A stretch of DNA of 64,000 bases. Origin: Candidatus Chisholmbacteria bacterium RIFCSPHIGHO2_01_FULL_52_32 (GTDB taxonomy: Bacteria > Patescibacteriota > Microgenomatia > UBA1400 > Chisholmbacteraceae). Below the pieces are notes generated by a model that worked only from the letters and a program-made list of their open reading frames with translations, made no database searches and was not told where the DNA came from. Positions 4,284-49,339 of the stretch are shown here, one piece after another; within the stretch, counting starts at the first letter, position 1; each line of letters begins with the position of its first letter. The stretch lies in contig MHCJ01000003.1 in assembly GCA_001816585.1 (NCBI GenBank), positions 220,228-284,227 on the forward strand, read 5' to 3'. The position numbers were made by a program, and so were the translations under genes.

Positions 4284-4410
4284 GTTCCAAATTTAAAGTT
4301 TAAAATTCAAAGTTAAAAGTTACAACTAATAAAATTAAAAGTTTCTCTCCTAACTTGTAACTTTAAACTGCAACTTTGAACTTTACACTTTACACTTTAA
4401 ACTTTTTTGA

Positions 4411-4496: not shown

Positions 4497-6320
4497 TTGA
4501 CACCGCCCTCCTTCTCGCCTGGCGTATTTGGTGGAATTTATCATATGCCCAATGACCCTGCCACTTCAGACAGTCCACGTTCGAAACCGTCCTCTGCCCC
4601 CTCGTCCATTCTGGATTTCCTGCTTCAGGTAAAGACGCTTACTAAAGAGCAGTATGACCAGATTCGGTTTGAGTCGGCTAGCGGAGGAAGAAGCCCTGAA
4701 GATTTGATGGTTGAAAAAAACTTGGTCGGTGAAGAGGCGTTGGCTCGGGCAAAGGCCTCGTTCTATAATGTCCCCTTTCTCGATTTAGAGCGGACGGCCG
4801 CTTCTCCGGAGGCGCTTGATAAACTTCCCGAAAGTGTTGCCAGTCGGTATAAAGCGCTCCCTTTTGAATATAACCAGAAGGACAATACGTTGTCCGTGGC
4901 AATGGCAAACCCACTGGACCTTGAGGCAATCGAGTTTATCGAAAAGAAGTCTGGCTGTCAGGTCATTCCGTTCATGGTTGTTGAATCGCAACTTACGTCC
5001 TTGATCGGAGACCTCTATGCCCAGAGCCTTTCTGTCGAGGTTACCGAGGCTTTAAAAGAGGCGGCTCCGGGAGAGGGAAAGGTTACGACAATTGATATTA
5101 CGAAACTCGGGGAGGTCATCCGCGAGGCACCGATTGCGAAGGTCGTGGCAACCTTACTTGAGTTTGCGATTAAAGCCCGGGCTTCAGATATCCATATTGA
5201 GCCTTTGGTGGATAGAACACGGGTACGATACCGGATTGATGGGATTCTGGTAGAGAAGCTCATATTGCCACGGCGTGTCCATAACGCGGTCGTCTCGCGG
5301 ATCAAGATACTTTCCGGAATGAAGATTGACGAGAAAAGACTCCCGCAGGACGGTCGTTTCAATTTCAAGATTGGGGAGGAAGAGGTTGATCTTCGGGTTT
5401 CCACCTTGCCGATCGTCCATGGAGAAAAGGTGGTAATGCGGTTACTGAAGAAAACCGGTCGCGTTCCGACTATGCCCGAGTTGGGTCTGCGCGGTATGGC
5501 CCTGAAGAACCTCCAGGAAGCGGTTCGGGTTCCCCACGGAATTATCCTGATCACCGGTCCGACAGGATCTGGGAAGACGACGACGTTGTATGCGATTCTC
5601 TCCAAACTGAATACTCCTCAAGTGAATATCATCACCCTTGAGGATCCGGTGGAATACGAAATGGCCGGGGTGAATCAGGTCCAGGTTAACCCGCTGGCTG
5701 GCTTAACCTTTGCCTCAGGGATGCGCAGCTTCCTTCGGCAGGACCCCAATATCATCATGGTCGGTGAGGTACGAGATACCGAGACCGCAGAGCTTGCCAT
5801 CCAGGCATCGCTGACCGGGCACTTGGTCTTCTCAACCTTGCATACGAACTCCGCCTCTGGGGCTCTCCCCCGGCTTTTGGATATGAAAGCCGAGCCTTTC
5901 TTGTTGGCATCCTCGATGACTTGCGTAATGGCCCAGCGGGTGGTTCGAAAAATTTGTGAACATTGCAAAGCTCCGATTTCCCCCCCGCCCGAGCTCGTTA
6001 CGGATATGAAGAAGGTTCTCGGTTCGTTGTATGACACGGTCAGATACGGTCAGGGAACGGGAGAAGGAGCTGTCACGCTGTACCGAGGAAAACACTGTGC
6101 TGAATGCGGCGATACCGGATACAGCGGCCGGGTTGGGATTTTTGAAGTGCTGCCGGTGTCGGAGCGGATCGGGCGGCTCATCTTGGAACGTGCACCGGCC
6201 AGTCGTATTGAGGAACAGGCAGTTTCCGAGGGTATGGTGTTGATGAAGCAGGACGGATATTTGAAGGCTTTGGAAGGAATTACTACAATAGAAGAAGTGC
6301 TTAGAGTTGCGGAGTCCTAG
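4497..6320 (+). CDS. pilB: type IV pilus assembly ATPase PilB (GspE family)
   Basis: 607 aa. N-terminal GspII-like domain, Walker A ITGPTGSGKTTTLYA, C-terminal tetra-Cys (CEHC...CAEC). First gene of the pilus locus. Confidence 0.9.
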   Translation: MTPPSFSPGVFGGIYHMPNDPATSDSPRSKPSSAPSSILDFLLQVKTLTKEQYDQIRFESASGGRSPEDLMVEKNLVGEEALARAKASFYNVPFLDLERTAASPEALDKLPESVASRYKALPFEYNQKDNTLSVAMANPLDLEAIEFIEKKSGCQVIPFMVVESQLTSLIGDLYAQSLSVEVTEALKEAAPGEGKVTTIDITKLGEVIREAPIAKVVATLLEFAIKARASDIHIEPLVDRTRVRYRIDGILVEKLILPRRVHNAVVSRIKILSGMKIDEKRLPQDGRFNFKIGEEEVDLRVSTLPIVHGEKVVMRLLKKTGRVPTMPELGLRGMALKNLQEAVRVPHGIILITGPTGSGKTTTLYAILSKLNTPQVNIITLEDPVEYEMAGVNQVQVNPLAGLTFASGMRSFLRQDPNIIMVGEVRDTETAELAIQASLTGHLVFSTLHTNSASGALPRLLDMKAEPFLLASSMTCVMAQRVVRKICEHCKAPISPPPELVTDMKKVLGSLYDTVRYGQGTGEGAVTLYRGKHCAECGDTGYSGRVGIFEVLPVSERIGRLILERAPASRIEEQAVSEGMVLMKQDGYLKALEGITTIEEVLRVAES

Positions 6321-6355: not shown

Positions 6356-7417
6356 ATGGATATTGTCAAGCTTCTTGAGAAAACGATTTCGGCTGCTGCC
6401 TCTGATTTACATATTGTTGTTGGTTTACCGCCAATGATCCGCGTTGAGGGAGAACTGTCTCCCGTCGAAGAGAGGCCGCTGACTGATGAAGAAACCCAGG
6501 AGATGGTCTTTTCGCTGCTTTCCCCGGAGCAAAAGGACCTCTTCTTAGTGAACCGAGAGCTCGATTTCTCCTATGACCATGAAGCGAAAGGGAGATTTCG
6601 GGTCAATGCCTACCACCAAAAAGGATTTGTTTCGGCCGCGCTGCGGCTCATCCCTTCCCAGATCCGGACCATTGAAGAGCTGAACCTTCCGAAGGTCCTC
6701 CATGATTTCGCCAAGCTCCGCCAGGGGTTTGTATTGGTCACCGGGCCTACCGGGCACGGTAAATCGACAACCTTGGCTGCGGTTATCCAGGAGATTAACG
6801 AGACTCAAGCCTCCCACATCGTGACCGTTGAAGACCCCATTGAATACGTCTACCCCATCGGAAGAAGCATCATTTCCCAGCGCGAGCTCCACTCGGATAC
6901 TCACTCTTGGGAAATTGCTCTCCGAAGTGCCCTTCGAGAAGACCCGGATGTGGTTTTGATCGGAGAAATGCGGGATTATGAAACCATCGCGGCAGCCCTC
7001 ACCATCGCTGAGACCGGCCACTTGGTTTTTGCGACCTTGCATACCAACAGCGCGGCCCAGACCATTGACCGGATTGTCGATGTGTTCCCCGAGCACCAGC
7101 AAGCGCAGGTCAAGATGCAGCTTTCAAACACGCTTGAAGCGGTGCTGTCCCAACGGCTCCTTCCTTCGGTAACCGGCGGAAGAATTCCCGTTGCAGAGAT
7201 TCTTTTGGCAAATGCGGCAGTCCGGACGACCATTCGTGAAGGAAAGACCCATCTTATCGATAACGTCATTCAAACTTCTGCCGACATCGGCATGAACACC
7301 TTGGAAACCAGCATGGCCTATTGGGTAAAGGCAGGGAAGCTTTCGCTTCAGGTTGCGACAGAGTGGGCGCTCCGGCCGGCTGAACTTCGGCGGCTGGTCC
7401 GTGGCGGAAAGGAGTAA
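6356..7417 (+). CDS. pilT: twitching-motility / pilus retraction ATPase PilT
   Basis: 353 aa. Walker A VTGPTGHGKSTTLAA and typical PilT size. Immediately downstream of pilB. Confidence 0.9.
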   Translation: MDIVKLLEKTISAAASDLHIVVGLPPMIRVEGELSPVEERPLTDEETQEMVFSLLSPEQKDLFLVNRELDFSYDHEAKGRFRVNAYHQKGFVSAALRLIPSQIRTIEELNLPKVLHDFAKLRQGFVLVTGPTGHGKSTTLAAVIQEINETQASHIVTVEDPIEYVYPIGRSIISQRELHSDTHSWEIALRSALREDPDVVLIGEMRDYETIAAALTIAETGHLVFATLHTNSAAQTIDRIVDVFPEHQQAQVKMQLSNTLEAVLSQRLLPSVTGGRIPVAEILLANAAVRTTIREGKTHLIDNVIQTSADIGMNTLETSMAYWVKAGKLSLQVATEWALRPAELRRLVRGGKE

Positions 7418-7447: not shown

Positions 7448-8656
7448 ATGGAGCAATTTCGGTATAAAGCAAAATCTCATGAGGGTGGAAAAGCACAAAG
7501 CGGAAAAGTTGAGGCACGTGACATTCGTCAGGCAGCCTCCATTCTTCGTGAAAGAGGCTTAGTGGTTGTTGGGCTTTCTCCGATCAGCCACCACATCCGC
7601 TTCACCTTCGTTTCCTCCTTTTTACATCGGGTGAAGTTTGTCGACATCGCTAATTTTACCCGTCAGCTGTCTACAATGATTACGGCAGGATTGCCGCTCA
7701 CGGACTCGTTGTCTCTGTTGGAAACCCAGGTTTCCCCCGGGCTTCAGACGATCGTTTCCGAAGTCCTGCGGGACGTCGAGGGTGGAAAGCCGCTCGGTGA
7801 GGCGCTCGAGAAGCACCCGCATGTATTTAACACGGTCTACGTTTCCTTGGTCCGGGCCGGGGAGGCGGCGGGAAAGCTTGATGAAATGCTCGCCAGACTT
7901 GCCGACAACCTTGAGAAAGAGAGGGAGTTCCGGGCGAAGACCAAAGGGGCAATGATCTACCCTCTTATCATTATTATCGGCATGATCATCGTCACGGCGG
8001 TCATGATGATTTTTGTGATTCCGAAGATGACTCAATTGTATGACGACTTTGGGGCGAAGTTACCCTTTGCCACTCTTCTTTTGGTGAATATCTCCAAATT
8101 CTTTTCCTCATTTTGGTATATTGTGCTTCTCATTGGGGTGGGGTCAAGTTGGATGTTTCGCCTTTGGCGTGCAACCCCCATAGGACGGCGATCGTTTGAT
8201 GAGTTTATCTTCCGCATACCGGTCTATGGGAACTTGCGCAGAGAGGTGTTGCTTGCAGAATTTTGTCGGACGCTGGGTTTGTTGGTGGGTGCGGGTGTTT
8301 CGATCGTTGAGGGATTGAATATCGTATCCGATACCTTGCCCAACCAGGTCTACGCCGATTCCGTGCGCGAGACCGCAAAAAGAGTCGAAAAAGGGCTTTC
8401 CGTTGCGGCAACAATCGCTTTGTATCCCCATTTCCCCCCTATTCTTTCGCAGATGCTTTCCGTCGGAGAGGAGACGGGAAAAATCGATGAGGTGTTATTG
8501 AAACTCGCCGTCTATTTTGAAACGGAATCGGAACACCTCATAAAAGGCTTGACAACCGCAATTGAGCCTCTTATCATGGTTTTCTTAGGCATCGGTGTCG
8601 GGTTTTTGGTCATCTCAGTGATCATGCCGATTTATAACCTCACCAGCCAAATGTAA
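7448..8656 (+). CDS. pilC: type IV pilus inner-membrane platform protein PilC (GspF family)
   Basis: 402 aa. Two GspF repeats with TM segments. Confidence 0.85.
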   Translation: MEQFRYKAKSHEGGKAQSGKVEARDIRQAASILRERGLVVVGLSPISHHIRFTFVSSFLHRVKFVDIANFTRQLSTMITAGLPLTDSLSLLETQVSPGLQTIVSEVLRDVEGGKPLGEALEKHPHVFNTVYVSLVRAGEAAGKLDEMLARLADNLEKEREFRAKTKGAMIYPLIIIIGMIIVTAVMMIFVIPKMTQLYDDFGAKLPFATLLLVNISKFFSSFWYIVLLIGVGSSWMFRLWRATPIGRRSFDEFIFRIPVYGNLRREVLLAEFCRTLGLLVGAGVSIVEGLNIVSDTLPNQVYADSVRETAKRVEKGLSVAATIALYPHFPPILSQMLSVGEETGKIDEVLLKLAVYFETESEHLIKGLTTAIEPLIMVFLGIGVGFLVISVIMPIYNLTSQM

Positions 8657-8775
8657 TAAAAGTTTAAAGTTCAAAGTTGAAGAGCCGAATTATCTCATGA
8701 CTGTTAACTTTTCATTTTTAACTTTTCACTTTTTTGCTGTCCAGAGAGGGGGTGAAAGGAAAAGCTACTTTCCTT

Positions 8776-9324
8776 ATGAAACTCAAACTCTCAAGAGGAT
8801 TTACCCTTATTGAGCTACTGATCGTCATTGCGGTGTTGGGAATCCTTGTGGTTGCCATCCTTTCCGCCCTTGATCCTTTAGAGCAATTACGCAAAGCGCG
8901 GGATGCCGGACGAAAATCCGATGCGGCTGAACTGTTGGCTGCTTACGAGCGGTACTACACCACCTACAACTGTTATCCTTGGGATACCGGTGCACCGACC
9001 TGTACGGCAAGTGTCCTTCGGTCATCGGCGGTAAACCCAGATTTTGCCGTTGCGGGAGCTGATTACCGTCTGATCACTCAAGGTGAGATGAAAGCCCAGT
9101 TTGCCAACCGGCGAACCGTGGTAGCGACCACGCCGGCAAACCAAAGACTTTATGTCAGTGAAGCAGCCGGGAGACAAGTTTCCGTCTGTTTTGAGCCCGA
9201 GTCAGGATCTGCGAGAACCGCTGGTGCGCAGGGACCGCTTCGGAACAACACGAACAGTGCGACGGCGGTCTGCGGAGCGGGAGCGTATCCAAGTACGACC
9301 TGCTATATCTGCGTACCGCAATAA
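8776..9324 (+). CDS. type IV major pilin paralog 1 (GspG-like; prepilin leader, N-methylation domain)
   Basis: Preferred start MKLKLSRGFTLIELLIVIAVLGIL (ATG 8776); the track ORF starts upstream at 8734. Prepilin peptidase site G|FTLIEL, C-terminal Cys pairs. Its 5' ~245 nt plus ~30 nt of leader are nucleotide-identical to paralog 2. Confidence 0.8.
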   Translation: MKLKLSRGFTLIELLIVIAVLGILVVAILSALDPLEQLRKARDAGRKSDAAELLAAYERYYTTYNCYPWDTGAPTCTASVLRSSAVNPDFAVAGADYRLITQGEMKAQFANRRTVVATTPANQRLYVSEAAGRQVSVCFEPESGSARTAGAQGPLRNNTNSATAVCGAGAYPSTTCYICVPQ

Positions 9325-9433
9325 CATACGCAGTGATCGTTGGGCAAACGCGTTATTCTTTGCCCTGAAGCGGGATAGTGTAGAGTGCCTTAAATACAAA
9401 GAGGGGGGGTGAGAGGAAAAACTATTTTTCCTT

Positions 9434-9988
9434 ATGAAACTCAAACTCTCAAGAGGATTTACCCTTATTGAGCTACTGATCGTCATTGCGGTGTTGGGAA
9501 TCCTTGTGGTTGCCATCCTTTCCGCCCTTGATCCTTTAGAGCAATTACGCAAAGCGCGGGATGCCGGACGAAAATCCGATGCGGCTGAACTGTTGGCTGC
9601 TTACGAGCGGTACTACACCACCTACAACTGTTATCCTTGGGATACCGGTGCACCGACCTGTACGGCGGTTGTCAACAGAGCTGTGGCTGTCAATCCGAAC
9701 TTTGCCGTGGCCGGTGATGATTACCGTCTGATCACTCAAGGTGAGATGAAAGCCCAGTTTGCAAACCGGCGGACTGTGATAGCCACGACGCCCGCTGCAG
9801 AGCGGTTGTTTGTGAGCGAAATTGCCGCTACGCGACAAGCTTCAGTCTGTTTTGAGCCCGAATCCGGATCGGCGAGAAACGCGGGTGCCCAAGGACCATT
9901 GCGCACCAATACGAATGCGCCGGATGCGGACAACCTCTGCACCGGGACGTATCCGAACGCATCTTGCTTTATCTGCGTTCCGCAGTAA
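9434..9988 (+). CDS. type IV major pilin paralog 2
   Basis: MKLKLSRGFTLIELLIVIAVLGIL... The N-terminal 78 aa are identical to paralog 1. The C-terminal half is divergent but retains identical internal patches (DYRLITQGEMKAQFANRRTV) and Cys pairs. Confidence 0.85.
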   Translation: MKLKLSRGFTLIELLIVIAVLGILVVAILSALDPLEQLRKARDAGRKSDAAELLAAYERYYTTYNCYPWDTGAPTCTAVVNRAVAVNPNFAVAGDDYRLITQGEMKAQFANRRTVIATTPAAERLFVSEIAATRQASVCFEPESGSARNAGAQGPLRTNTNAPDADNLCTGTYPNASCFICVPQ

Positions 9989-10024
9989 AGACATACAAAA
10001 ATCGAGACAACCTCTGATCGTGGT

Positions 10025-10840
10025 ATGATTGGTACGATGATCATCGGAGCTGTCTCGGTTTTTTTATTCGGTTTGGCTATAGGGAGTTTTCTTAACGTTG
10101 TTATCTATCGAACCATCCATGGGGAGAGCCCGTTTGAGGGCCGCAGCCGTTGTCCTCATTGTAAAAAAACCATTCGGGCAATCGACAACATTCCCCTTCT
10201 CTCCTTTCTTTTTCTCGGCGGCCGGTGCAGATACTGCAAGACGAAGATCTCCTGGACCTACCCGGTCATTGAATTGTTGACCGGGGTTCTATTTGTCTGG
10301 TGGTGGCTGGGCGGTTCGCTTTTCTTTAAACTGACCGCTGCCCCGTTTGTTTACCTTCAACCGTTGTTTTGGCTTACGGTGGGGACACTCCTTCTTTCCC
10401 TGTTTTTTACCGATTTTCTCTACGGTATCCTCCCTGATATTCTGGTCGGCGTATTGGGAGTATTGGCCCTGGCGTACCGAGTGCTATTGACCTATACAGG
10501 AATCATGCAGTGGCCCGATTTTTGGTATTCTATCGCAAGCGGAATCGGCGCTTCACTGTTTTTCTTTGCCCTCCACGCATTAACCCGCGGGCGCGGGATG
10601 GGCATGGGCGATGTGAAGCTTGGTTTGGCCTTCGGAATCCTTTTGGGGTGGCCGAGGACACTTGTAGCGGTGTTTGCCAGTTTTGTCAGCGGGGCTCTGG
10701 TCGGGGTGTGGTTACTTGCGAGCGGTCGTCGGCAGTTTGGTCAGACTATTCCATTCGGTCCGTTTCTTGTTCTCGGGACGATGGTTTCTCTCCTTTGGGG
10801 CGGGGCACTTTGGAGTTGGTATATGGGGATGATATTCTAG
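10025..10840 (+). CDS. pilD: prepilin peptidase / N-methyltransferase PilD (A24 family)
   Basis: 271 aa. N-terminal CPHC...CRYC zinc-binding tetrad, multi-TM, catalytic Asp motif GMGDVKL. Confidence 0.85.
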   Translation: MIGTMIIGAVSVFLFGLAIGSFLNVVIYRTIHGESPFEGRSRCPHCKKTIRAIDNIPLLSFLFLGGRCRYCKTKISWTYPVIELLTGVLFVWWWLGGSLFFKLTAAPFVYLQPLFWLTVGTLLLSLFFTDFLYGILPDILVGVLGVLALAYRVLLTYTGIMQWPDFWYSIASGIGASLFFFALHALTRGRGMGMGDVKLGLAFGILLGWPRTLVAVFASFVSGALVGVWLLASGRRQFGQTIPFGPFLVLGTMVSLLWGGALWSWYMGMIF

Positions 10841-11038
10841 TTAAAAGTTAAAAGTTAAAAGTTAAAAGTTTCAGAGTGAACAGAAAACAGTTAAAAGTGG
10901 AAAGTGAGAAGTTGAAAACGCCCATTTTAAACGAGCGACGGTAACTTTGAACTTTGAATTGTAATTTAAACTTTTCATTTTTTATTTTTAACTTGTTCCT
11001 GTTGACAGGATTTAGGGAGGCTGTCATACTTTTTTTGA

Positions 11039-11437
11039 ATGCGAAAAAACAGGGGATTTACGATCATCGAGCTTCTGGTGGCTTTGACGATCGTTGCCAT
11101 CATCACCGCTCTGGCGGTGGCAAGCTATACCTCCGCCAGACGAAATAGCCGGAATGCCAAGCGGCGGGGCGACATGGTCGCACTTCAGCAGGCGTTCGAA
11201 CAGTATTATCTTTCGAACCAGACCTACGCAACTCCCTGCTCGACTATGGCAACGGGATATTTACAAGGTTCCTTCCCCGCGGAAACGCTCGTCGGTTGGA
11301 ACGCGTACGCGCAAAACTGTACGGCTACGACGTACTGCGTTTGTGCACGTTTGGAGGGCGGAGGAGGCGGAAATGCGTCGAACAGCACGTGTACGTTCGG
11401 AACGGGGGAATATTTTTGCGTTGCGAACCAACAGTAA
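11039..11437 (+). CDS. type IV pilin / pseudopilin (N-methyl domain)
   Basis: MRKNRGFTIIELLVALTIVAIITALAVASY prepilin N-terminus. Cys-rich C-terminal domain. Confidence 0.8.
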   Translation: MRKNRGFTIIELLVALTIVAIITALAVASYTSARRNSRNAKRRGDMVALQQAFEQYYLSNQTYATPCSTMATGYLQGSFPAETLVGWNAYAQNCTATTYCVCARLEGGGGGNASNSTCTFGTGEYFCVANQQ

Positions 11438-11538: not shown

Positions 11539-11979
11539 ATGACTATAAACCAAAGACTGAAGACCAGCGACCAACATGAATCGTCTGGTTTTACCCTGAT
11601 TGAGCTCCTGGTGGCTGTTGCCATCTTTGCGATTTTGACCGCGCTCGCAGTGGTGAGCTACACTTCGGCGAACCGAAGGGCGCGGGATGGGCGACGACGG
11701 TCGGATTTGGAGCAGGTGAGAACTGCCCTTGAGATCTATCGGGCGGATAACACCAGTTATCCGGTCGGGACAAACTTCACGACCATGGTGAATACCTTGG
11801 TCGCGGGAAATTATCTGTCTACAGCCCCAACCGATCCCCGGGGATACGGCTACTACTACAATTCCGCGACCGGGGTTGATTACTACGTTTGTGGCTACCT
11901 TGAAACGGGTGGTCCTGCCAATTGTGGCGCGAACTGTGCTGCTCCCGGAAACTGTAATTATCGAGTGGATAGCCCATGA
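11539..11979 (+). CDS. GspG-like pseudopilin
   Basis: GFTLIELLVAVAIFAILTALAVVSY N-terminus. TAPTDPRGYGYYYN resembles the GspG PTDPWG motif. Confidence 0.8.
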   Translation: MTINQRLKTSDQHESSGFTLIELLVAVAIFAILTALAVVSYTSANRRARDGRRRSDLEQVRTALEIYRADNTSYPVGTNFTTMVNTLVAGNYLSTAPTDPRGYGYYYNSATGVDYYVCGYLETGGPANCGANCAAPGNCNYRVDSP

Positions 11980-12989
11980 AACAAGTTAAAAGTTTAAAGT
12001 TAAAAGTTAAAAGTTCTTCATTCGGCTTTACGCTGATTGAGATTATGGTTGCGGTGATGGTGATCAGCTTCATGTCCGGAGGAGGAGTGGCAGCGTATCG
12101 ACGCTTAAATGATCGGGCCCTGGTCGAAGGCGCAGCCAAACAAGTCGAGCAGGCGCTGCGGGAGACGCAGAAACGGGCTTCTTCAGGAGTGAAGCCAACG
12201 GGGTGCAGCGGAGCGTTGGCCTCGTATTCGATCTCAATGGGCGGGGCGCTCGGTGAGGATCGATATTCGATTCAAGCTGACTGCGCGACGACCGATCCTG
12301 CGGCGGAAACGTTTGATCTCCCAACCGGCACCCGTTTTCCACTGGAAAAAAGAGTCAGTTTCCCGGCTTTGGGAAAGGGGGCAACTCCGGAAACGATATG
12401 GGTGCAGAATGACTCGCAGCAGATTACGTATGAACTCCGTGTCAGTCAGGGTGGGTCCCTGAGCGGTTTGGGGCAGGCAGAGGGAGCCGTGCCAACCCCG
12501 ACGCCGACACCGATCCCGGAGGCGGCAAACTTGGTTCCCAACCCGGGCTTTGAGATAGGCTCGCCTGCCTCCTGGGGTACGAGTTCCTCCGGATGCAGTA
12601 TCACCCCAACCTATCAATGGACCTCCACTACAAAGCATAGCGGGACGTATGCGGTGGGGATTAAATATACCGGAGCTGTGGGCTGCACGGCTCAATATCA
12701 GACCTCATCGACTGCGGCCCCTGTTATTGCGGGGTCATCGTATTACTTCTCCGGTTGGATCAAAGCCTCGGGAGTGGTGAACAAGGCATTTCTTCGGGTC
12801 AGTTTTTACAACTCCTCTGGGTTGCTTATTACGAGCGTGAACTCGGCTTCGCAGGTGGGAACGACGTCCTGGACCCAGGTAACACAAACCATGAGTGCTC
12901 CGTCCGGTGCTGTGTCGGCGCGTATTCATGTCCGCCTGCTTGACGCCGGAACAGCGTACTTCGATGATCTCATGTTCGCCAAGCTCTAA
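11976..12989 (+). CDS. minor pilin with C-terminal carbohydrate-binding-module-like beta-sandwich domain
   Basis: Start overlaps the previous gene stop (ATGA). Prepilin-like N-terminus FGFTLIEIMVAVMVISF, a PTPTPTPIPE linker, then LVPNPGFEIGS...W...YFDDLMFAKL, resembling CBM4/9-type sugar-binding modules. Confidence 0.7.
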   Translation: MKQVKSLKLKVKSSSFGFTLIEIMVAVMVISFMSGGGVAAYRRLNDRALVEGAAKQVEQALRETQKRASSGVKPTGCSGALASYSISMGGALGEDRYSIQADCATTDPAAETFDLPTGTRFPLEKRVSFPALGKGATPETIWVQNDSQQITYELRVSQGGSLSGLGQAEGAVPTPTPTPIPEAANLVPNPGFEIGSPASWGTSSSGCSITPTYQWTSTTKHSGTYAVGIKYTGAVGCTAQYQTSSTAAPVIAGSSYYFSGWIKASGVVNKAFLRVSFYNSSGLLITSVNSASQVGTTSWTQVTQTMSAPSGAVSARIHVRLLDAGTAYFDDLMFAKL

Positions 12990-24877: not shown

Positions 24878-25196
24878 AATAACTGAAGTATATACAATAG
24901 TTACTGATGTGTCAATAGTCCATTTTCGCCACCTATGATATCGGCACGGGACTAGAGGGAGTAGAACAGGGGTAGGAGGGAGGTTGCAACCAGGGCCAAG
25001 CTTGCGATGGCAACCAGGATAGTCCAGATTCGTTTATGGCGTTTGGAGAGGAGCACAGGAATAAATGTAAAATTTAAAATTCAAAGTTAAAAGTTACCGT
25101 GTAAGGTTAAAAGCTTGCGGAGTAACTTTCAATTTTGAACTGCATTTTTTCATTATTACCTTTTCATTTTGAACTTTTTATCCTATCCCCTACTGC

Positions 25197-33143: not shown

Positions 33144-33219
33144 ACAACAAGTTAAAAGTTAAAAATGAAAAGTGAAAAGTTAAAAAGCAAGGTAATAATA
33201 TTTGAATTTTAAATTTGTT

Positions 33220-49234: not shown

Positions 49235-49339
49235 CAAGATAAAGTGAAAAGTTAAACCCATTCGACAAGCCCTTCGGCCGCGAGCTCAGGACCGAGTGGC
49301 TCAGAGCAAGAATGAAAAGTTAAAAGTTATCATACGTTT

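Follow-up and report, generated by a model that had tools for sequence, protein, structure and literature searches.

How do two neighboring genes come to be identical over one part of their length and strongly diverged over the rest? This question is raised by a 64,000-nt stretch of DNA from Candidatus Chisholmbacteria bacterium RIFCSPHIGHO2_01_FULL_52_32 (contig MHCJ01000003.1, 220,228-284,227; hereafter the window, to whose positions all coordinates refer), in which two tandem genes of a type IV pilus operon, here called pilin genes A and B, share the sequence for the leader and the assembly helix and differ in the part that encodes the head. The model that we favor, and consider probable, is that A and B encode two major pilins that are expressed together and have a single assembly helix in common, the 5' ends of the genes being homogenized by gene conversion.

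Shared and variable blocks of the two genes

The longest exact run common to A and B was 240 nt (8769-9008 and 9427-9666), comprising 7 nt upstream of the start codon and 233 coding nt, or 77 2/3 codons. An earlier note on this DNA had described ~275 identical nt beginning ~30 nt upstream of the ATG; the identity of the first 78 codons stands, but the exact run is ~35 nt shorter than that, and the ~20 nt 5' of it (GGGGGTGA[A/G]AGGAAAA[G/A]CTA[-/T][C/T]) contain 3 substitutions and 1 indel between A and B. Downstream of this constant block 225 of 321 nt were identical, including an exact 45-nt island and, further on, a 17-nt exact run. The islands of identity that had been reported in the 3' halves are real, the one quoted being precisely this 45-nt run (9060-9104 and 9718-9762), and the picture of a constant assembly part followed by a divergent head part was right as a description. 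Divergence in the head was concentrated directly after the helix, in variable block V1, and in a C-terminal Cys-bounded loop; examples of gene-specific stretches are TASVLRSSAVNPDF in A versus TAVVNRAVAVNPNF in B. The regions that match V1 and the Cys-bounded loop are surface-exposed in solved type IVa pili. When the 97 differences were permuted among the 555 aligned columns, the mean longest run was ~26 and the maximum in 20,000 permutations was 76; the analytic probability of finding no difference in the given 233 nt was ~10^-19. Chance is excluded as the source of the 5' identity.

Comparison among lineages

The family to which A and B belong has at least 274 members in a large protein collection, and its N-terminal ~70 residues are nearly invariant; a C-terminal signature, ...SVCFEPES...C...CxxCVPQ, is also kept. 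This near invariance would favor an explanation that involves no gene conversion, in which the 5' identity results from strong purifying selection that acts on the protein or mRNA of the leader and assembly helix; the synonymous sites oppose that explanation, and we regard it as extremely improbable. Between A and B, codons 1 to 78 contained one synonymous difference (proportion of differing synonymous sites, pS, 0.017); in the remainder pS was 0.63 (dS ~1.37, saturated) and dN 0.166, with dN/dS ~0.12. Two related lineages carry a pair in the same slot, with pilins ~77% (L104) and ~69% (L110) identical to B. Over codons 31 to 78 the protein was almost constant everywhere (the nonsynonymous counterpart of pS, pN, being at most 0.05), and nucleotide identity was 97-100% within a genome (in the window and L104; in L110 to codon 44 only), whereas it was 71-88% between lineages; pS in these codons was 0.03 in the window and 0.06 in L104 versus 0.59-0.66 between genomes. 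Thus, the synonymous sites of the same codons gave pS values of 0.02-0.06 within genomes but ~0.6 between them, and a control, the tandem pilin pair of L054, kept 58 N-terminal residues identical at a pS of ~0.46, which likewise argues against constraint. Since 5' identity was higher within genomes than between lineages, we attribute it to recurrent gene conversion and not to protein constraint.

The grouping was reversed in the 3' block. Over codons 111 to 184 the copies within a genome were 65-70% identical at the nucleotide level, whereas the A-slot genes of L104 and L110 were 79% identical to each other; therefore, the duplication is older than those lineages. An old duplication together with a 5' end homogenized genome by genome, so that paralogs are closer than orthologs at the synonymous sites of codons 31 to 78, is concerted evolution by definition. 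The limits of the conversion tract also differed among lineages, indicating repeated, independent conversion events: the copies of L110 were 100% identical over codons 31 to 44 and 84% identical over codons 1 to 30, and the 45-nt island was not homogenized in L104 (synonymous sites saturated, raw pS 1.2). We concluded from these sequence comparisons that the 5' 240 nt, which take in the ribosome-binding end, the leader, the alpha-1 helix, and the start of the head, are held identical within each genome by repeated homologous gene conversion, and that the 45-nt tract in the middle of the head-coding part (P ~5e-5 for such a run in the 3' part alone) is a second, lineage-specific tract. The gene conversion or concerted evolution that the earlier note had proposed is borne out in this way by three lineages rather than by one pair. 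Purifying selection on the head-coding parts further indicates that both copies are functional genes, not silent cassettes.

A scan of genome contigs with the family alignment returned, among the matches listed, mostly distant pilins of 33-40% identity, with tandem pairs in L068, L064, and L054; a scan of metagenome contigs with gene B returned 3 loci. The pair in L068 (2293-3531; JAHJFD010000058.1, from a marine biofilm Patescibacteria metagenome-assembled genome, MAG) is unrelated to A and B and encodes pilin-like proteins of 178 and 184 aa with 81% aa identity. It has an exact 128-nt run from the start codon, and its pS was 0.06 over codons 1 to 45 versus 0.66-1.04 after them. Judged by this pattern, L068 is an independent case of 5' homogenization in a candidate phyla radiation (CPR) pilin pair.

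Integrity of the tandem arrangement

Could the pair be an assembly artefact, that is, one pilin gene whose strain variants were mislaid as a tandem? Such an error would be in keeping with four short contigs that connect pilC straight to gene B and with the many contigs that end inside the 240-nt repeat, although breaks at that place are expected because k was 141. Against it, many independent contigs (L003-L010, L012, L014, L016, L018, and L019) bridged the 3' end of A and the 5' end of B by the unique A-B spacer, and the same layout was present in at least 7 contigs longer than 200 kb from separate ENA samples and in the related lineages L104 and L110. A 161-kb JGI contig begins within gene A and continues through gene B, and the exact proteins were found on 17 contigs (A) and 19 contigs (B), with an overall recurrence of 14-19 contigs each. 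The tandem pair is not a one-off assembly product, and we judge an artefact highly improbable. Short-read assemblies are broken or short-circuited by the 240-nt repeat, and the number of pilin copies reported for CPR MAGs is therefore probably too low in many cases.

Variation in the population

In one 698-nt contig (L022, protein P0002) the gene A locus had exactly V1 (9009-9059) swapped for the V1 of gene B, the patch being bounded by the 240-nt block and the 45-nt island as crossover boundary; the contig also carries one single-nucleotide polymorphism (SNP) that recurs in L017 and L021. From its sequence the patch looks like a conversion tract; it may instead be a low-k chimera, which is less likely than a chimera across the 240-nt repeat. 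L021 (1-910; ERZ4903055 k141_2448232, the end of a 636-kb contig) was 100% identical to the window from ~codon 50 of B through all downstream genes; it had ~14 SNPs in the first ~150 nt and the upstream region of B (L5F, R7K, and V25I in the protein) and, in the A slot, an allele only ~65% identical to the window. This pattern of identity indicates an allelic replacement with its endpoint inside the constant block. Three further proteins (P0126, P0016, and P0003) mix A-type and B-type residues on almost the same N-terminus. Among near-identical strains, recombination has a hot spot in the pilin locus.

The allelic replacement at this locus in L021, ending within the constant block of gene B, and the several different head alleles on almost the same N-terminus would also suit another history, in which the whole gene was duplicated recently and one copy then received a foreign 3' half, encoding another head, from a different strain by recombination, the 5' part never having been homogenized. 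However, three lineages possess the pair, the 5' identity within the genome being particular to each of them, and the orthologous A-slot 3' parts of L104 and L110 require an old duplication with repeated 5' homogenization. We consider this history improbable as an account of the pair; import and conversion are compatible, and both probably act.

In four contigs from ENA and JGI (L013, L015, L017, and L020), otherwise identical to the window, pilC and the A-type upstream sequence are joined directly to B, at a junction equal to window position 9008 joined to 9667. These contigs may reflect a real 658-nt deletion by inter-repeat recombination, or a short-circuit by the assembler through the 240-nt repeat. 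The recombinational pilin variation that the earlier note had envisaged thus receives weak support from the L022 patch, the L021 allele, and the contigs lacking A, of which the first and the last are inseparable from assembly errors; a programmed, high-frequency system does not.

Search for programmed variation

In the Moraxella Piv system, alternative pilin 3' segments are inverted by a site-specific invertase. A and B are direct repeats, not inverted ones, and no recombinase domain was found among the genes within ~6 kb of the pair, as would not be the case for an invertible pilin of the Piv type. Searches of the 64-kb window by tblastn and blastn with A, B, and their C-terminal parts found only the two full genes, and no silent or truncated cassettes. 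A regular-expression scan of 8000-11000 found no G-quadruplex (G4) motif upstream of A or B; the sole G4-type motif in that interval (10589-10608, GGGCGCGGGATGGGCATGGG, + strand) lies within the pilD coding sequence and is probably incidental. Non-reciprocal transfer of a segment was represented by one contig, L022, whose B-to-A patch may come from a chimeric assembly.

These results bear on programmed variation of the Neisseria pilE/pilS type, in which one copy would be expressed, the other would be a donor cassette, and heads would be transferred frequently and non-reciprocally. The alternation of constant and variable blocks, with an internal 45-nt island that possibly guides exchanges, is compatible with such a system, as is the B-type patch in gene A of L022. 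Both copies, however, are complete genes that have their own start codon, leader, and Shine-Dalgarno sequence; the identical A and B proteins recur in 14-19 contigs each; dN/dS is low (~0.12); and the window holds neither further copies, full or truncated, nor a G4 motif upstream of the pair in the interval scanned. With no cassettes in the window, no recombinase within ~6 kb, no upstream G4 in 8000-11000, and no inverted copies, and with both genes complete and under purifying selection, a programmed switch like that of Neisseria or Moraxella is not supported, and we hold it to be very unlikely.

Pilin identity and the proposed model

The exact A and B proteins are in GenBank under the adjacent locus tags A2786_02255/02260 of a Candidatus Chisholmbacteria MAG from the Rifle aquifer. 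The source organism is a CPR bacterium of the Microgenomates group, and these exact matches confirm the CPR-type cell that had been presumed from the DNA alone. The gene order is pilB-pilT-pilC-A-B-pilD, followed by pilin-like genes, a PilX_N-like gene, and pilM, making a complete type IV pilus operon in which the assembly ATPase and platform protein genes (with pilT) lie upstream of the pair and the prepilin peptidase gene downstream. The prepilin motif (MKLKLSRG/FTLIELL, Glu at +5) is present in both proteins, with PF07963 at 31 bits (cutoff 21.2) and TIGR02532 at 31.6 bits (cutoff 16.3). An AlphaFold2 model of the gene B product, made with a 43-sequence family alignment (predicted local distance difference test score, pLDDT, 88.5), has a helix at residues 11 to 64 and a small beta-strand head; the predicted fold is thus a lollipop, as membership in the type IV pilins requires. 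All Foldseek matches to the PDB were pilins or pseudopilins, but weak (E of 0.2 or more), and sequence-profile matches to the PDB reached little past the alpha-1 helix. In four more distant relatives (57-65% identity) the interval from pilC to pilD holds one pilin, which points to a single copy as the ancestral state, and A and B fill the slot of that single family pilin; on this synteny the designation of A and B as major pilins, which had been given to them before, is plausible.

The annotation of the pair differs from ours. GenBank entries OGY18317.1 and OGY18318.1 (8776-9988) are both named 'hypothetical protein', and UniRef has 'GspG C-terminal domain-containing protein'. For gene A, GenBank places the start farther upstream, giving 190 aa, and not at the ATG shared with gene B; the open reading frame (ORF) program likewise chose a TTG (8734) upstream of the ATG common to A and B.

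In the model that we favor, A and B would be transcribed as one unit that begins at a promoter upstream of A and ends at the hairpin terminator behind B, each would be translated from its own Shine-Dalgarno sequence, and PilD, encoded next to them, would cleave both prepilins. Given the identity of the alpha-1 helices, a single PilB/PilC machinery would polymerise both products, most likely to a mixed (heteropolymeric) filament with two head types on its surface, by analogy with PilE1 and PilE2 of Streptococcus sanguinis. The identical blocks would serve as homology anchors, and heads would occasionally be exchanged, lost, or replaced between copies and strains to give mosaic alleles, by ordinary homologous recombination without a dedicated switching device.

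A and B might instead be alternatives, forming separate homopolymeric filaments or serving under different conditions or on different hosts, with the shared 5' ends reflecting only that one machinery serves both. S. sanguinis stays piliated when pilE1 or pilE2 alone is mutated (PMC10628169), and Saccharibacteria make two distinct pili with different major pilins (PMC11623550); both observations would accord with such a division. On the other hand, the A-B spacer (9325-9433) contained no promoter match comparable to that at 8549-8577, no significant RNA structure, and no terminator; the locus has a single set of assembly genes; and the machinery would be unlikely to discriminate between identical alpha-1 helices. 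We regard this arrangement as rather unlikely, and retain the mixed filament of co-expressed pilins.

An extension of the co-expression model would make the 240-nt and 45-nt blocks fixed anchors for modular head-swapping, with V1 and V2 shuffled between the two expressed copies and among co-occurring strains, so that populations constantly re-assort the pilus surfaces that set host binding or phage attachment. We think this doubtful. If true, head-swapping would diversify the pilus in a cassette-like way with two functional genes and no silent loci.

Several points weigh against the favored model. Co-transcription, cleavage, and co-assembly of A and B are steps that we infer, and the evidence for a major-pilin role consists of synteny, size, and the terminator. 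The content of Gly, Ala, Ser, and Thr (GAST) was 0.34-0.37 in A and B versus 0.27-0.28 in the cytoplasmic Pil proteins, and did not separate A and B from the adjacent pilin-like genes. No solved homologue of the head domain was found by Foldseek (E of 0.2 or more) or by profile matches, which lay near alpha-1 only, and surface exposure of the differing residues is therefore assumed from general pilin architecture. De Bruijn bubble-popping could mask a few real 5' SNPs, so that an identity of '100%' is strictly at least about 95-100%. L022 and the four contigs lacking A are short, probably low-coverage MEGAHIT or JGI contigs, and a short-circuit is possible in the latter because every k-mer of that path occurs in the tandem genome.

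Expression signals, repeats, and neighboring genes

The positions of the features are collected in Table 1. A Shine-Dalgarno-like G-run precedes the ATG of both A and B. The hairpin stands immediately after gene B, with the start codon of pilD (10025) inside it; as a possible terminator or attenuator, it could keep expression of the pilins high relative to that of the peptidase. The ribosome-binding region of gene B contains a G7 homopolymer (9403-9409), where gene A has G5 and L021 has GAGAGGGGG. A slipped-strand switch at this G7 was considered and rejected, there being no length variation in any contig of the strain.

Table 1. Features of the pilus locus and positions in the window
Feature	Position	Strand	Details
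Heptamer clusters	1224-1370, 4288-4405, 8659-8732, 10837-10962, 11982-12015, 25069-25177, 33148-33181, 49309-49328		(AAAGTTN)n
pilB-type assembly ATPase	4497-6320	+	PF00437 T2SSE E=1e-128 plus MshEN domain
pilT-type retraction ATPase	6356-7417	+	PF00437 E=1e-43, 353 aa
pilC platform protein	7448-8656	+	PF00482 T2SSF, two stretches, E=3e-65
Best sigma-70-like promoter match, TTGACA-17-TATCAT	8549-8577	+	Candidate for the pilin pair; 11 of 12 positions, consensus match only; in pilC 3' end
Shine-Dalgarno region of gene A, GGGGGTGAAAGGAAAAGCTA	8749-8768	+	Like that of gene B, not identical
Constant block, copy 1	8769-9008	+	Exact repeat: leader, alpha-1 helix, onward to Cys75-Thr-Ala
Pilin gene A	8776-9324	+	182 aa prepilin; leader MKLKLSRG / FTLIELL, Glu5; PF07963 E=1e-7; TIGR02532
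Variable block V1, gene A (codons 79-95)	9009-9059	+	59% nt identity to B
45-nt island, copy 1	9060-9104	+	Exact; encodes DYRLITQGEMKAQFA; second conversion tract
Variable block V2, gene A (codons 111-182)	9105-9324	+	70% nt identity to B
A-B spacer	9325-9433	+	109 nt; contains gene B Shine-Dalgarno (G7 run 9403-9409)
Constant block, copy 2	9427-9666	+	Exact 240-nt repeat
Pilin gene B	9434-9988	+	184 aa prepilin; PF07963
Variable block V1, gene B	9667-9717	+	Donor sequence of L022 patch
45-nt island, copy 2	9718-9762	+	Exact; = 9060-9104
Strong hairpin with U7 run, terminator- or attenuator-like	9997-10066	+	dG -32.5 kcal/mol, z = -4.95, 0/200 shuffles as stable
Prepilin peptidase pilD	10025-10840	+	PF06750 E=1e-32, PF01478 E=2e-11
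Three more pilin-like genes, presumed minor pilins	11039-11437, 11539-11979, 11976-12989	+	PF07963; ComP_DUS (below cutoff), T2SSG, CBM_4_9

The last of the pilin-like genes (11976-12989) encodes a pilin-like protein of 337 aa in which an N-terminal methylation motif is combined with a carbohydrate-binding domain, CBM_4_9, at the C-terminal side (29.4 bits, cutoff 25.9). By this domain content it is a modular pilin and a candidate glycan-binding tip adhesin.

AT-rich heptamer repeats of the form (AAAGTTN)n occurred 38 times in the window, versus 0.09 matches expected. In most of them forward copies come first and reverse copies after, which makes palindromes in the intergenic spacers; one cluster lies within the 5' end of the pilin-like ORF at 11976 and encodes MKQVKSLKLKVKSS. 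The repeats look like a genome-specific family resembling repetitive extragenic palindromic (REP) elements or bidirectional terminators. An invertible element made of AT-rich inverted repeats around A-B-pilD was rejected as a candidate, the same heptamers forming at least 8 clusters across the window.

Comparison with known systems

Of the attachment organelles of CPR episymbionts, type IV pili have the best support, and almost all functional knowledge of them comes from Saccharibacteria. The locus described here suggests that some lineages of the Microgenomates group build a pilus from two head variants on one shared helix. If the heads mediate recognition of hosts or phages, the host range and strain dynamics of uncultured groundwater CPR could be approached through the pair.

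Major pilins encoded in tandem and identical at the N-terminus are already known, as is gene conversion among pilin copies. PilE1 and PilE2 of S. sanguinis are 'almost identical' over their first 110 residues, are about equally abundant, and have a stochastic distribution within one filament; half of the genomes have three pilin genes (PMC4832360, PMC10628169). As in that species, two adjacent full-length pilin genes lie here in a pil locus with one assembly gene set and one prepilin peptidase, their N-termini are identical or nearly so, and diversity increases toward the C-terminus. Copy number also varies in both, with two or three genes there and one or two here if the contigs lacking A are real. 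The family profile, however, matched PilE1 (8pfb_G) only at query positions 7 to 62, the alpha-1 helix (E=7e-4), so the resemblance is a functional and architectural analogy rather than orthology. Cross-lineage concerted evolution at the nucleotide level, as described here, is an analysis that we did not find in PMC4832360 or PMC10628169. The leader has 18 aa there and 8 aa here, the identical stretch spans ~110 residues there and 78 codons here, and co-assembly is demonstrated there and inferred here.

Neisseria pilE/pilS resembles A and B in that conversion occurs between pilin copies, conserved and variable blocks alternate, and short conserved islands form the exchange boundaries. The Neisseria donors are promoterless, 5'-truncated silent cassettes. 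According to PMC10094033, conversion there acts at high frequency to vary the 3' part of a single expressed gene and needs an upstream G4 element. Here, in contrast, it is the conserved 5' part that is homogenized, there are only two copies, both complete, and no G4 motif lies upstream.

Within CPR, type IV pili are not known to have been studied by experiment outside Saccharibacteria (TM7x). The pili of the Saccharibacteria strain TM7x serve in host binding and motility, and consist of small lollipop-type major pilins with many minor pilins, some of which have large accessory domains (PMC11623550), as may be the case here. Unlike the present locus, TM7x has two separate type IV pilus systems at different loci, each with one major pilin, and no tandem pair in one operon; the words 'tandem' and 'duplicat*' are absent from that paper (PMC11623550). 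The CPR 'Pam' pili (2026 preprint) were set aside as a donor-strand-exchange system unrelated to the A and B pilins. We found no description in the literature of tandem major pilins with identical N-termini, or of pilin gene conversion, in CPR/Patescibacteria.

The duplicated tuf genes of Salmonella are the textbook example of concerted evolution by RecA-dependent gene conversion. They share with A and B the homogenization of duplicates within a genome and an identity within genomes that exceeds that between orthologs. In A and B, unlike tuf, homogenization is confined to a part of the gene and has its boundary at the border between the assembly and head domains. The pair thus offers a clean natural case of partial-gene concerted evolution in which the boundary of the tract is the boundary of a protein domain.

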